IMG/VR virus record: IMGVR_UViG_3300031673_012906
Location: 1-53,541 of that record
Length of the DNA: 53,541 nt
Origin: a virus
Taxonomy: Duplodnaviria; Caudoviricetes
Reading direction: 5' to 3' (one strand)
In this document: positions 36,001-42,000 of the stretch, one piece after another
How the letters are laid out: each line of letters opens with the position of its first letter
How positions within the stretch are numbered: the stretch's first letter is position 1
Position numbers: made by a program

Positions 36001-39000
36001 GGATTAAATTCATATGTTTCAATACCATCGCTGGATAAAGAAATGAAATCAATTTTTTTAATATCACCTGTGTGTATTAAGGGGGCAGTAGATTCGGTGG
36101 TAATAATGTTTGATAAATATCCCGTGTCTTTGTATGTTCGGAGGTTAACTGTTCGTTCTGCACCACCAAATTTTTCGTCATCCATGTAACTATGTTTCCG
36201 TAATACATCCATTTCGTAGGATAAATAATATGGAGCATTACTGGCGTAGTTGATATTAAACCACGCACTAGTACCATTGGTACGTTTGATAATTATATTA
36301 CCATCACCATATCCGATGATAAAATATTTGCCCTTAGTCGCAATTGCCATTAATAAGGTGGCATCGCAAATTTGATAGGAAAGCCCAAATTGAGCAACGG
36401 TATTTTTTGAGTAGAATATGATATCCATTTTTATACATGCTACCAATTGTTCCAACGATAAATTTTCTATTAAACTGCCATGATATGCATTCTTAATTGC
36501 TTTCTCTGCACTAAAGGATATAATTCTGGAACCAAGATCAGTCTTAGGCGAGGATGTACATCCATCAGATATAATTACATACGCAAGTTCCCCATCTCCG
36601 AATTTACCTTCTAGGGCGTAATCTTCACATATGTTATGACCATTTCCTAATTCAATATAGGAATCAACATTAAAATTCATATGACGTTCCTTTTGAAATG
36701 GGGGAGTAAACCCCCCCATTTACATTAAAGGCTGAAGCTTGGGTTTGCTACTGGTTTCGATGGCATACCTGTCTGAATATTTTGTGATGTGCTGGAAACA
36801 CTCTGGCTTATCCATCCAACAACTTTGGCCAGATTTTTTCCGGTAAAATTGGCACAATCAAGAAATTTACTGAACATTCCATCTTTTCTGAATTGCTCAA
36901 GTTCATCTTTATATTCGGCTGCATTTACACCAATCAAAAAAGGTTCAACTATTCCCATCTGTTCATTTCTTTTAATTCTTGTGTAAGCATCTTTAATCTT
37001 AGATGCGGGGTGCTTGGAATCGTTTTCCCATCCATCAGTAACAACGAAGAACACTGCGTTGACTTTGTATTCATCATCGATCAGTTTTTGGGCATATGTT
37101 TCGATTGCTTCAATAGAATTTAAAGTAGCATCAATGAGCGGGGTCATTCCATCGGGTTCAACGCACCCATCATATATAGATGGATCAATAGTACTCAACA
37201 GTTTGAAACCATGTACTTCCTTGATGTTATTGGGAATATAGGAATTGAAAGTAATCACACGAAGCATTACCATTTCAGGACATGGTATATCATCTACACA
37301 TGCCTTGTGTATTTCTTTCATTGCTTTTTCAATAAGCCCTTTGAAATCATCAACGGAAGTTGTTGCGTCCAATGCAACTTGAACCAATGTATATCTGTCA
37401 TCTAACAGATCTTCAATTTCTTCCGTGCTGAACTCAAAGCCAGATGTTGTGCTTAGACTATCCATTTTTTAGCTCCTTCTTAGGTTAATTAAATTTTAAT
37501 ATCCAAAATAGTTTTCTGTGGTCGCCAGTTTGAGTCCTTTGTCTTTCATTTCACTTACGAATTCTTCACCCTGTGGTGTAAAGTCCACAATACCGGGGAT
37601 AATTACAGGGCTGGAAGCGTCTGTCAAAAGTGTGAACTTCTTTAATTGATCTACATCAAATTGTTCAACTACATCACGCATGGTAGCTGCAACGCAGTGA
37701 GATAAAGCCTGTCCTGCAAATACTATTTCACAGTCATCTTCTTTTAGGATGTTGATCAATGCTTCGTTGAGCATGGTGTTTCTCTCACCGGGGCGAATAA
37801 CTTCCGCTTTAACAGCACTGTAGTGTTCAACAAATGGGTTGGAACCTTTTGTTATCATATTTGCTTTATGATATTTTCTTTCCCACTCATTGATGGCTTT
37901 TACAACGGGTTCCACCATACACCATCCCCAAGTACCAATGATACAGTGTTCGGGCCAAATCTGAACGTTGTATTTTTTACGTGGGTCATCTACCGTCTGG
38001 GTTTCCAGCTTTTCAGTATATTCCAATGCCCAAGATTGATATTTGGGATTGGCAGATCTAAACGCACCATCTAAAACAGATTGGTGGGATATTTGAGTTC
38101 CGGGGTCGGGGTGATTATTGTTTTCATCCAACCACCAAACACCGTGTCCAACGTGGATGACGCTGTGAGAATCCAAGGTACAGGTGATTTTTTTGAATTC
38201 CCCGTTATATTTTTCAATGAACTTTGCTGTGCGCTCACAGTCTTTTTCAGCATTTGCAACATAAAGTGCTGCCTTATTTGGTATGCAAAAATCATTCTGC
38301 ACATCAATCAAAAACAAGTGAATATTCTTATCCATTTTTTAACTCCTTTTTATTGTTGTTGTACTTTTTATCATTTTGATAATAAACCTATACAATTAAA
38401 TATAAACCTTTTTTTTCAAAAATGCAAACATTTTTTATCAAAATAATAAAAAATACTTGACTTAAGAGATAAATGGTGTTTTTGGATAAATTTCTAAGGG
38501 TATTTTATAATATTTTTATATTCTTAATTCTTTTGTTTTTAATAAGGAAGATCTTGAAATTACATTTTCCTGTTCTTGTTTAAAGAGATTCCGTTTGTAT
38601 CGTTCTATCAGCGGGTGATCATGTAATTGAGATTGACCGCTGAAATATTTTTTAAATATCTGTTCCGCTTCCTCATATGATTTAACTTTGAGTTGGGTAA
38701 AATCATTTATAGAAATTCCCATGCGGGGCATTGCTTTGATACAATTAGTGAATGCTTTTCTTTCTTTTATATTTTGGATGCGCTTCTTTAACAAATATTT
38801 TGCTAAATCATAAATTTCAGTTTTCCAAAGCGATTGGATTAAATGAAAATCTCCAACGTCTCCATGAAGCGTCCACAAACCAGTTAAAAAGTCAGTTTGA
38901 TTGACAGTTGAAATTACTTTACCTTTCTTTGTCTGTGCTAAATCGTATAGATATATCATCCTTATTCTGGCTTTAATATTAGCTGCCCGAATTTTAACTT

Positions 39001-42000
39001 CTAACGTGTTGTTTTTAATATTAAGATTATTTTCGTTTTTTAATCCTCTACAAAAAACTTTATAGTCAGTGGTTAAATCAACCTTTTGAAATCTTGTACA
39101 TAATAAACTTCCTATCATCTTGGCTAAAATTATATCTTTTTTATTATCATCTTCAATTACAAAACTTCTTCCCATTAAAGGAATCTTCATTTCACGGCAA
39201 ACTTTTCTACATAAAAAAGCAGTGACAGCACTATCAACATCGCCAGAAATTCCCAACACCAAAGATTTAAGTTTATTTGTGGTTATAAAATTTTTCAATT
39301 CAATTGTCATTGATTTTATTAGAAAATCAAAATTATTAAGATTTTTTGAAATAGTTATTTGTCGTTTCTTTCGTAAAAATGTTTCAACTTTTGGTGTTTC
39401 CGGTTCACTAACTTTTAAAATATCAAATATCAAATTCTTATCAAAAATTACTTTGTTATCAGTTAATGGTATAAGTTTTTGAAATTTTTTCCGTATGAAT
39501 TGTTTTAACTCTGTAGGAAATCTAAGTAACGGTTTTATGGTTTTATTTTCGTATAAAAAACCATTACTCGCCCTAATGAGAATATCATTGTTTCCGTGTA
39601 AATTAATCTCTTGGGGAGAAAAGTTGCTATTTCCGAAAATGAAAAATTCAGTAGATTTTTTAAACAATGTCATATCAAAAGCATCAAAAACATTGATGTT
39701 ATTTTTAAATAAATCTAAAAATTTAAATTCACATTTTGTGTTAGGTTGCCATATTAAAAATAATTCACGCTTTCCTTCTTCTGCTATTGATTTTGCTATG
39801 AGATAATCTCTTACTCTTTCACGTAATGTACCTTTAACATCGACATATAATTTGGCCCTTCTTCTGATACAGCTATAATAATTTGGTTTCATTTCTCTTA
39901 TTGAAAAATTCGCCAATTCATGGTCATCTTTTATTCCCCAAGGAACTCTTCTTAAAGATAGGTCTCTATTTTTTATCGTTAGTTCTAATAAATTATCTTT
40001 ATATTCTTCGCTGATGGTTTGATGTTTAACTCTTACAGTATCATCATGTGGTATATGGTTTAATGAATCAGGATATATATTTTTGCGTATTAATCCATTA
40101 TTTTCCAATCGTTCATATAAATCAGAATCATCCCATCCATAACACGTTAATCTTTCATCGTACCCCTGTACTTTAGTTAAATGTTCTCTAAACGCATAAA
40201 TAGCACCGTTCAAATGAATTTCATTTGTATCTCTTGCTAATTCCCATCTTCCTGTAAAAAAAGAATCCTTTTTTAATATAAATTTTTGAAAAAAGTTTTC
40301 GGTAAGTTTAATATCAGCGTCCAATTTTAAAATTTTATTTTTACTGGCAGCTTGTATTGCTAAATTATATGCATAAGAAAGAATCCAATCATCTTCCCCT
40401 TCCACCCTAAGTATGATAATCTGTTTCTTAGCTTTAAATTTATTTACTATTAGTTCTACGGGGCTATCTGAACTCCAATCAACAATAATTATTTCATCGA
40501 TGTTTGGATTATCTACCCATGTCTGTAATGATATTTCTAAATGGTCATTTCTATTTTTTATAGCATTTATAACGGAAACACCATTTTCAATTGGTTTTCC
40601 CAAAATATTACGTGTGTTATTCATATTATTTTAAAATTAATTTTATATCCCCAATTACATTAGCCACCCACGAAAATGTACTCCACGTTGTACCAAATAT
40701 TTTTTTAGTCCGTGAAAGACAATACATATCAGCTAACGCATCTATTTGACCACCCTTTACTTCATTATATTTTGATTCGTGGAATGATTTTAAATCATTC
40801 TCAATGATGTGATTTCTAAATCTTTTTTTGAAATTGTTGGATGTTCGCTTGCAATCAGTTGCCAGAAAAAACCTAGCATTCTTATTTTTTGAAATTATAT
40901 CCTCAATGATTTTTATAAAATAATTATCATCATGGGATTCCAAGTATTCTAAAGAATCTGGGTTTTTAGCATCCATCACATCACCTTTTCTGATGTGCAT
41001 GCCATACGTGTGTTTACTGTATTTAGAAACGCTGTGCTCTACCAATTGTTTAACATATTCATTAAGTTTTAAATTTCTTAATTCATAAATGAATTCGTTT
41101 TCTATTCCTAAGAACGTAGGCCATACAAGGTTTGATGTGATAATACTTAAGGGGAGATTGCAATTGTTTGCTAATTTAAAATTCCAAATATTGAAATTAT
41201 ATTTTTTTAAGTTAGCAACGACTTCCTTTCGATGAGTTCCTTCATTATATACATTACCTTCATTTTCTTCATATTGTTTACATTTACTTAACTGAATAAA
41301 ATCATTTAAGTTAATTGATTCTCCCCGGATTTTATTAAATTCTTTCTCAGTTATTAAGTTTTCTTCATTGGAAAAAAAGGAATTAAAATGTGTATCGTCA
41401 AACCCTATTGTTTTAGTCCAACAGAGAAGTAATTTTCTATTTAATTTCCCGGCCAACGCTTTATAAAAAGCATACGCTCTCATTCTATTACCTAAACCGT
41501 TAATTACTTTTATTGCTAAGTAATTATTTTTAGGATTTGGGGTTATATGGTAATCTTTGATTAGTGCATTTTTATTCATCATAAGATAATATAAATAATT
41601 TTATCATTTATATTAAAACTTAATGAAAAATATTAATGATTAATCTGAAAAACTTTTTTAACGTGAGTTTCATGTTCTGCGTCTTCACACATACCTTTAC
41701 CCTTGGAATCAGATATTTTAGCTACGGGGTTACCGTTGACTTCAACCAGTTTCATAACCATCTGTAGGGCGACATATAACGGCCCTAAATCGAAGCCTAA
41801 ATGAGTTCCTATGCCAAAGCTTAATTTGATTTGATTTCTGAATCTCTCGATCAATTTAAACATTAATTCAAATGTTACACTGTCACTGAATACAGCAGTT
41901 TTTGATGTTGGTGAAAGACCAAGTTGCTCATAATGATTTATCAATTTTTCGCACCACCAAAAAGGATCACCTGAATCATGCCGACAGCCATCAAATAACT

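Follow-up and report, generated by a model that had tools for sequence, protein, structure and literature searches.

A single gene on a contig of 53,541 nucleotides (nt) from a tailed-phage-like virus (Duplodnaviria; Caudoviricetes; IMG/VR record IMGVR_UViG_3300031673_012906; the whole stretch is called the window hereafter) encodes a 702-amino-acid (aa) protein, P0001, in which a GT-A glycosyltransferase domain is followed by a fucosyltransferase-like lobe and by a domain derived from NadE, the synthetase of nicotinamide adenine dinucleotide (NAD). We consider it probable that P0001 is an active GT-A enzyme that works with the NodZ-like fucosyltransferase encoded beside it and carries two enzyme relics for structure, oligomerisation or binding; it is a viral glycosyltransferase of several domains to which a pseudoenzyme is appended, and constitutes no new kind of system. 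An earlier interpretation of the same DNA without database searches (the sequence-only reading) had described one open reading frame (ORF) spanning 38516..40624 with this three-part anatomy. The ORF proved to be uninterrupted and on the minus strand, the plus strand across 38516–40624 being rich in stops, and profiles, alignments and AlphaFold2 (AF2) folds recovered all three parts. In the reading that we favour, the N-terminal GT-A domain would be the sole working catalytic module, and P0001 would be made together with, and probably act in sequence with, the NodZ-like enzyme encoded 1 nt upstream, the two building a glycan on some acceptor. The middle part would be the N-lobe of a once-complete fucosyltransferase domain whose motif has degraded and whose donor-binding C-lobe is gone, and the C-terminal part a captured NadE that has lost its NAD-synthetase chemistry; selection would have preserved both in a role other than catalysis, with structure or oligomerisation the likeliest.

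The architecture is old and very rare in sequence space. The domain-architecture search proposed with the sequence-only reading returned, from 5.8 billion proteins in a word-indexed search, three full-length orthologs (P0002–P0004; 672–674 aa, 42–44% identical, 98–99% coverage), and the four fusion proteins align end to end with identical domain boundaries. An exhaustive HMMER scan of 1.84 billion representatives of 50%-identity clusters yielded two full-length proteins, P0001 and P0003, among its 150 best matches, and NAD_synthase was found in none of the seven other long multi-stretch matches checked. Two clusters among the 150 best matches support the rarity implied by the earlier remark that no such architecture was known, and no description of a NadE–glycosyltransferase fusion or pseudoenzyme was found in the literature by title or abstract. 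Read support across the junctions, also proposed earlier as a check, was found: two runs that may be the source (X1 and X2) gave Logan contigs of 13.6 kb and 10.7 kb that span the whole fusion stretch, and X3, from a third study, gave a contig of 1,888 bp that covers 38400–40144 with 0 differences and bridges both junctions. A further run (X4) contributed only two 151-bp pieces, which lie within the NodZ-like gene. The sequencing runs that contain the stretch are labelled soil metagenomes, and no RNA dataset was among the runs listed.

A maximum-likelihood tree of 33 NadE sequences placed the four fusion domains in one clade (99/97) and paired the NadE encoded elsewhere in the window (local NadE) with a standalone sequence unrelated to it (99/93). 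The tree has no root, and the length of the stem leading to P0002–P0004 (1.32) may overstate the fusion grouping, with which the common architecture and the substitutions held in common agree. The fusion thus arose once, well before the four lineages diverged, and because of the separate clades this origin is a single old one and not a duplication of the nadE gene 7 kb away. Of the sequence-only description of the domain as a full-length paralog of the local NadE, the homology stands (40% identity) and the local duplication falls. A recent chimera, another of its suggestions, is refuted by the three orthologs, the junction-bridging contigs and the single clade, and misassembly by contigs from three runs that bridge both junctions.

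Pfam NAD_synthase (PF02540) matches P0001 at aa 437–612 (E 2.1e-27, 96.3 bits, cutoff 21), and full-length NadE equivalog models stay far below cutoff (for example, NF010587 with 92.9 against 255). The NadE part is 40% identical to the local NadE over 281 aa (E 1e-62) and 40–46% identical to many standalone NadEs, largely phage-associated. Its alignment to the local NadE contains every change quoted in the sequence-only reading (SGGIDS to SGDVDS, TDNFTE to TVNQTD and PTDGLG to PRMGIS), and NIKARIRM and WTLHGDVGD are kept. A set of 26 standalone relatives supplied a signature of 56 columns with conservation of 90% or more. Every one of the 26 keeps 52–56 of these columns and the local NadE all 56; P0001 keeps 39, P0002 22, P0003 20 and P0004 12, so that 17 are changed in P0001 and 34–44 in its orthologs. 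The PP-loop motif, intact in 26/26 standalone relatives, reads SGDVDS in P0001, SGGVNS in P0002, SDGINS in P0003 and QEDVNS in P0004. Common to all four fusions are E578>D, the loss of D574 and G548, and the loss of the TDGLG of the P2 loop (clade consensus P-T-D-G-L-G), which is replaced by R--MG in P0001 and deleted in P0002–P0004. In the three orthologs, other residues also stand in for both NIKARxRM arginines and for most of WTLHGDVGD; since two alignments differ on a gap near NIKARIRM, only the arginine replacement is claimed here, and not a helix deletion. Residues S465, K551, K601 and E603 are kept in all four proteins, and NIKARIRM, T573, D589 and K601 in P0001.

ATP pyrophosphatases are described as being defined by a fully conserved SGGxDS motif (bioRxiv 10.1101/2023.10.12.562014), the S48N change in this motif of Salmonella NadE is reported to raise the Michaelis constant (Km) for ammonia about 70–100-fold (PMC3376133), and closure of the P2 loop on MgATP and nicotinic acid adenine dinucleotide (NaAD) is described as the first catalytic step towards the adenylate intermediate (PMC6946656). 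The lost signature columns, the broken PP-loop and the lost P2 loop support a NadE-like domain that is catalytically dead and almost certainly not an NAD synthetase, which upholds that half of the earlier suggestion of a dead sensor domain. As no two of the orthologs have the loop broken in the same way, conserved ATP-pyrophosphatase chemistry, whether old or new, is argued against. We regard it as very improbable that decay is confined to the orthologs and that P0001 is still a working synthetase of NAD or nicotinamide mononucleotide (NMN), a bifunctional GT/NadE enzyme. It does keep 39/56 columns, conservative exchanges (E>D, D>E, V>I, F>L) account for many of the 17 columns changed, it exceeds the cutoff of the NCBIfam domain model TIGR00552, its branch length is 0.86 against a standalone NadE median of 0.8, and its dimer model, described below, outscores the controls. 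However, G462D falls inside the SGGxDS loop at a position where 26/26 relatives have G, T634>R accompanies a shortened P2 loop, D574 has become V, the changes held in common with the decayed orthologs point to a loss that dates from their shared ancestor, and a fully canonical nadE (56/56) is present on the same contig.

Loss of signature residues has left the fold in place. The AF2 model of the NadE-like domain has a predicted local distance difference test score (pLDDT) of 87.5 and a predicted template-modelling score (pTM) of 0.86, and Foldseek matched it to the solved NadEs 1xng and 3fiu (E about 3e-14, target-normalised TM 0.83–0.84). A fold search with a 453-residue model (aa 250–702), which mostly probed the NadE part, gave 3fiu at Z 26.0, NadE matches at Z 21–26 and the PP-loop N-acetyl sugar amidotransferase 8wex at Z 7.7; 5foe, a candidate match across both lobes, was discarded, its root-mean-square deviation (rmsd) of 17.3 Å being meaningless. 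The presence of 8wex in this list recalls the earlier idea of sugar-carboxylate amidation, in which the domain would be a neofunctionalised PP-loop ligase acting by adenylation and amidation on a carboxylate new to it, such as a uronic or nonulosonic acid within the product glycan of the GT-A and NodZ-like enzymes. PP-loop sugar amidotransferases do exist, and the domain is fused to glycan enzymes and retained under selection, but the phosphate-binding loop differs even among the four orthologs (QEDVNS in P0004), the P2 loop is lost in all of them, the fusions have no conspicuous new motif in common, no Pfam or NCBIfam sugar-amidotransferase model matches, and the fold is far closer to NadE than to 8wex. 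Chiefly on the variable PP-loop, the lost P2 loop and the two Z values, this idea is disfavoured and we hold it to be improbable.

Retention of the domain was judged from per-domain identity and a stop-codon shuffle. Its 272-codon frame is open, where shuffled sequences held a mean of 24.4 stops and 0/20,000 were stop-free, and the other two frames of the stretch hold 30 and 33 stops. In the three other fusion lineages the domain is likewise open. Identity among the four fusions is 34–52% in the NadE-like part (46–52% within P0002–P0004), against 54–66% in GT-A. The NadE-like domain has thus been retained open and foldable. There is hardly any probability left for an artefact, be it a misassembly, a singleton chimera or a neutrally drifting fusion: the architecture is extremely rare and the NadE-like part evolves faster than GT-A, but four independent sequences have the same junctions, the contig from the third study agrees without a difference, the frame is open and the fold is confident, findings that also contradict the singleton fusion in neutral decay envisaged in the sequence-only reading. 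A homodimer model of the domain scored 0.74 against 0.37 for the best control; solved NadE dimers exist, and the score may reflect likeness to them alone. The score lies above the mark set for the modelling tool, which 20 of 30 proteins with structures solved as pairs attained, as did 1 of 23 solved as single chains, and the runs showed contact agreement of at least 82% and pLDDT of at least 82, with a predicted interface at aa 542–565 and 586–598. In the P0001 copy, then, the NadE-type homodimer interface appears from modelling to be preserved, and the role of the domain may be purely structural.

The middle domain holds up as a degenerate fucosyltransferase N-lobe on both sequence and model. 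Pfam NodZ does not match P0001 itself, and pairwise BLAST against the N-terminus of the neighbouring NodZ-like protein (P0122) is weak (E 0.004, 12/34 identical). A stronger connection runs through the relative P0168, which Pfam NodZ does match (30.3 bits, cutoff 28.3): P0001 aligns with it without a break from GT-A into the NodZ-positive region (36% identity, aa 15–339, E 5e-55). In the columns of the GTLRERVRDY segment, P0168 and P0229 have GLGNRLR and P0215 GLCNRLR, and these three, as well as P0016 (GALANRL), run on into an IG(I/V)H(V/I) segment. The AF2 model of aa 250–702 has pLDDT mostly above 90 in the middle domain, and model residues 5–142 superpose on residues 2–155 of NodZ (2hhc; Z 8.1, rmsd 3.3 Å, 120 aligned), followed by FUT1 (5kop, Z 6.8) and FUT8 (6vlf, Z 5.9). 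As a Z of about 8 is a level that the fold tool calls common for unrelated models, the assignment rests on sequence and fold together. The GLGNR position, GLGNR in P0122, reads TLRER in P0001 and D-I-S-N-R, N-L-V-N-R and S-L-T-N-R in P0002–P0004. The donor-binding C-lobe (H-x-R-x-G-D/Q region) is absent, the lobe ending at about aa 400 before a linker into the NadE-like domain. With TLRER in place of GLGNR and no C-lobe, the sequence is such that the middle lobe cannot be a working fucosyltransferase. The degenerate N-lobe named in the sequence-only reading from GTLRERVRDY is thereby borne out, through the motif, the continuity with P0168 and the superposition on 2hhc.

Catalysis would therefore fall to the GT-A domain, if P0001 is the glycosyltransferase that we propose. 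Pfam Glycos_transf_2 (PF00535) matches aa 17–116 (25.8 bits, cutoff 23.3) and Glyco_transf_7C (PF02709) aa 140–179 (26.7 bits, cutoff 23). The role of the DxD motif in GT-A enzymes is established; here it is D102-A-D104, and D102 and D104 are invariant in the four orthologs together with many other columns. These features suggest that the GT-A domain of P0001 is catalytically active. About 4,800 relatives were found at E≤0.001, and GT-A was the part mostly matched among the 150 best listed; relatives of this domain occur in contigs of giant-virus metagenome-assembled genomes and in red-algal proteins as well as in phages. The NodZ-like gene stops 1 nt upstream of the fusion ATG, and the two genes would be coupled in translation. 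GT-A and NodZ-like domains also meet within single proteins: P0005 combines a NodZ-like domain, GT-A and the relic lobe in one chain, P0168, P0215 and P0229 join GT-A to a fuller NodZ-like domain, and Pfam NodZ accompanies a GT-A family in 4/120 listed homologs. A NodZ-like gene stands near a GT-A or middle-domain relative at 3/16 fetched loci. Because of the P0005 fusion, the homologs with both families and these loci, GT-A plus NodZ-like is a recurring unit; P0122 is likely to be the functional partner of the fusion, and its enzyme would cooperate with the GT-A domain.

The neighbourhood raises the question of a link to NAD. The sequence-only reading had placed the fusion between pncB and pncA; both flanks are present, pncB firmly (NF003704, 440.8 bits against a cutoff of 379), but the gene directly upstream is the NodZ-like one and the downstream pncA-like gene is a weak though consistent nicotinamidase relative. 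Relatives of NadE, PncA, PncB, NrtR, NADAR and ADP-ribosylglycohydrolase (ARH) occur at 0/16 loci that carry GT-A or middle-domain relatives, none of which is a fusion ortholog, and a scan of the fusion C-terminal alignment against viral contigs and genome contigs gave no match; a metagenome scan gave, among the matches listed, one locus, with a standalone NodZ-like gene. The guanine–cytosine (GC) content of the three fusion domains (26.7–29.4%) matches the low-GC glycan cassette, with 28.9% in the NodZ-like gene, and not pncB (36.1%), the pncA-like gene (40.6%) or the local nadE (36.5%). Both results weaken the earlier view of the gene as a functional bridge from the glycan set to the NAD set, and such a link is unproven. 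Two histories may account for the location: a glycan gene may have been inserted into an ancestral pncB–nadE–pncA operon and fused to nadE, or a pre-formed fusion cassette may have landed between pncB and the pncA-like gene.

This location also bears on the suggestion that a dead enzyme has turned sensor, the NadE-like domain binding an adenine nucleotide (ATP, NaAD, NAD+ or ADP-ribose) and gating the glycosyltransferase allosterically, which would make glycan synthesis dependent on NAD status in the infected cell. It draws on the place of the fusion between pncB and the pncA-like gene on a contig rich in NAD and ADP-ribose genes, on the residues kept in P0001 (NIKARIRM, T573, D589 and K601) and in all four proteins (S465, K551, K601 and E603), and on the confident NadE fold. 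The orthologs, however, replace both NIKARxRM arginines and most of WTLHGDVGD, so that no common pocket is evident, NAD genes are missing from the 16 loci of GT-A and middle-domain relatives, and GC places the fusion with the glycan cassette; we rate the sensor as unlikely. A further variant, which we regard as a long shot, has the relic N-lobe and the NadE-like domain form a hybrid two-lobed GT-B-like scaffold that binds an NAD-derived nucleotide (NaAD, NAD+ or ADP-ribose). If it were true, a PP-loop nucleotide-binding domain would stand in for the donor-binding C-lobe, the products of host defences that deplete NAD would act as a switch for phage glycan synthesis or feed into it, and NAD-state sensing would be physically coupled to glycan remodelling, with the position between pncB and pncA explained.

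Several observations weigh against an active GT-A enzyme that merely carries two relics, the reading that we still prefer. The nadE equivalog_domain model TIGR00552 scores 84.7 bits on P0001, above its cutoff of 63.65, and P0001, with 39/56 columns and with NIKARIRM, WTLHGDVGD and K601 kept, is much less degraded than its orthologs and may have residual nucleotide binding or activity. The position exactly between pncB and the pncA-like gene would be a striking coincidence if the NadE-like domain were unrelated to NAD, and a natural NadE–PncA fusion (P0240) has the order NadE then PncA, as the NadE-like domain and the pncA-like gene have here. The model of the middle and NadE-like domains together reaches a pTM of 0.67 and does not fix how they pack, GT-B-like or otherwise. 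The predicted dimer interface crosses segments that are altered in the three orthologs, and dimerisation may therefore not be a role conserved across the family. Finally, the GT-A domain has no solved relative in the Protein Data Bank detectable by sequence (E≤0.01).

Table 1. The fusion gene, its parts and the neighbouring genes, in window coordinates.
Feature	Coordinates	Strand	Basis
Whole fusion ORF P0001, 702 aa plus stop	38516..40624	-	end-to-end alignment with P0002–P0004
GT-A domain, aa 1–255, GT2-like with Glyco_transf_7C, judged intact	39860..40624	-	Pfam, ortholog identity
DxD motif D102-A-D104 of GT-A	40313..40321	-	D102 and D104 invariant in 4 orthologs
Putative relic NodZ/GT23-type N-lobe, aa 256 to ~400, no C-lobe	39425..39859	-	sequence continuity and AF2 fold
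Degenerate GLGN(R) motif GTLRERVRDY, aa 265–274	39803..39832	-	alignment columns of relatives
Linker, aa 401–436, poorly conserved	39317..39424	-	19–43% ortholog identity; pLDDT dips to 56–64
NadE-derived domain, aa 437–702, judged non-catalytic (pseudoenzyme)	38519..39316	-	Pfam, tree, column counts, fold
Broken PP-loop SGDVDS (canonical SGGxDS), aa 460–465	39230..39247	-	G462 is G in 26/26 standalone relatives
NodZ-like fucosyltransferase gene P0122, 318 aa	40626..41582	-	Pfam; stop 1 nt before fusion ATG
pncB (nicotinate phosphoribosyltransferase), context	41633..42838	-	NF003704
pncA-like nicotinamidase/isochorismatase-family gene, context	37496..38335	-	profiles, nicotinamidase matches
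Canonical local nadE P0121 (SGGIDS), comparator	30603..31484	-	56/56 conserved columns

The 53.5-kb contig resembles part of a large tailed phage, with 12 tRNA genes, a phage-type sigma factor and a portal-like fragment, and also with PhoH, two dCMP-deaminase-like proteins, an intein-bearing T4-type RNA ligase, NrdJ and many glycosyltransferases and sulfotransferases. Genes for NAD and ADP-ribose metabolism are dense on one strand at 29884–33814 and 37496–42838, and comprise an NrtR-like Nudix protein with a winged helix-turn-helix domain, the canonical NadE, a YdjM-like membrane protein, NADAR, an ADP-ribosylglycohydrolase, the pncA-like gene and pncB. PncA, PncB and NadE make up a Preiss–Handler-type salvage set; the window showed neither NadD nor NMNAT, and nothing relevant on phage PncA/PncB/NadE sets was found in the literature by title or abstract. 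The NAD/ADP-ribose set may by itself form an island of counter-defence genes. The pncA-like protein has 279 aa against 201–216 aa in the matched nicotinamidases and is matched at aa 2–63 and 123–224, two separate stretches that imply an insertion of about 60 residues; its Pfam match covers aa 7–81 only. GC content is a mosaic, with about 27–31% in the glycan genes and many small ORFs and about 34–41% in the NAD, ADP-ribose, ribonucleotide reductase and signalling genes, which suggests two gene pools that differ in origin or age.

Between the ADP-ribose genes and the pncA-like gene, at 34094–37465, stand three consecutive genes for a kinase-like protein (570 aa, weak Pkinase match), a PP2C phosphatase and a VWA-domain protein, for which no NCBIfam or PHROG name was found. 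A second glycan-modification cluster, at 46975–50573 and 17939–18580, belongs to eukaryote-flavoured families: two sulfotransferases, Galactosyl_T (GT31-like), GT92 and a PLOD-type glycosyltransferase. The 12 tRNA genes lie on the minus strand at 47766–53483 (Thr ×2, Met, Asp ×2, Ile, Arg ×2, Val ×2 and Gly ×2) and alternate with glycosyltransferase genes and a dephospho-CoA kinase gene. At 25113–27374, an intein that carries a LAGLIDADG homing endonuclease splits a T4-type RNA ligase 1 gene (Pfam RNA_lig_T4_1, Intein_splicing and LAGLIDADG_2). NrdJ, a class II ribonucleotide reductase of 864 aa at 42945–45539, has a C-terminal extension of about 200 aa without an assigned family, the Pfam barrel domain ending at aa 657.

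If P0001 is what we propose, it offers a clean, datable case in which an unrelated enzyme has taken up NadE, an essential enzyme of metabolism, and retained it as a pseudoenzyme domain, with four orthologs that would represent successive stages of decay (39, 22, 20 and 12 of 56 columns). It can also mislead annotation: its scores exceed both the Pfam cutoff and that of the NCBIfam nadE domain model, the latter being a curated cutoff that NCBI applies in naming proteins, and a second NAD synthetase could therefore be ascribed to the phage by automatic annotation. Viral glycosyltransferases would further appear to be rebuilt from parts, from GT-A with a full NodZ-like domain through a truncated lobe to a foreign Rossmann-like domain at the place of the C-lobe. 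Should the NAD-gene neighbourhood be conserved in the orthologs, the fusion would become a candidate link from NAD-centred conflict between phage and host to glycan modification.

Phage genes that restore NAD are an established counter-defence theme: as described in two reports (bioRxiv 10.1101/2024.02.11.579819 and PMC13464706), NARP1 recycles ADP-ribose, NARP2 uses nicotinamide via NMN, and NARP3 consists of PnuC and NadR. The abstracts of these reports name no PncA, PncB, NadE, glycosyltransferase or NadE-like pseudoenzyme in NARP1–3, from which the NAD set of the window thus differs. Comparable to the fusion are P0240, which joins a NadE of the same sequence neighbourhood to an isochorismatase/PncA-like enzyme, and P0181, which joins one to a CTP_transf_like partner of NMNAT type; P0217 also combines NadE with an isochorismatase/PncA-like part, and these proteins have the appearance of compact NAD-salvage fusion enzymes. 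In P0240 and P0181, however, the partner belongs to the same pathway, and NAD_synthase scores about 121–126 bits against 96 in P0001. The standalone NadE clade near the fusion is probably largely phage-borne, going by Atlas rows that are all below 0.9 and serve as leads only. The nearest solved relatives of the NadE-like domain (PF02540/TIGR00552) are the Francisella tularensis NMN synthetase (3fiu), Helicobacter pylori 1xng and Campylobacter jejuni 3p52. The domain resembles them in its fold (VIA Z 26.0 to 3fiu) and perhaps in its predicted homodimer, and is 40–46% identical to phage-type standalone NadEs, but it has a broken SGGxDS and no P2 loop and is placed behind two glycosyltransferase-derived domains. 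The middle domain superposes on residues 2–155 of the alpha-1,6-fucosyltransferase NodZ (GT23, 2hhc), but as an N-lobe only and with its motif degraded. Other close counterparts are P0168, P0215 and P0229, which have the same GT-A domain and the same fucosyltransferase-like start directly after it, together with P0005, which has the truncated lobe in common with P0001. Whereas P0168, P0215 and P0229 carry GLGNRLR or GLCNRLR and continue into a C-lobe (IGIHVRMGQ), P0001 has TLRER for GLGNR and a NadE-derived domain where the C-lobe would follow.

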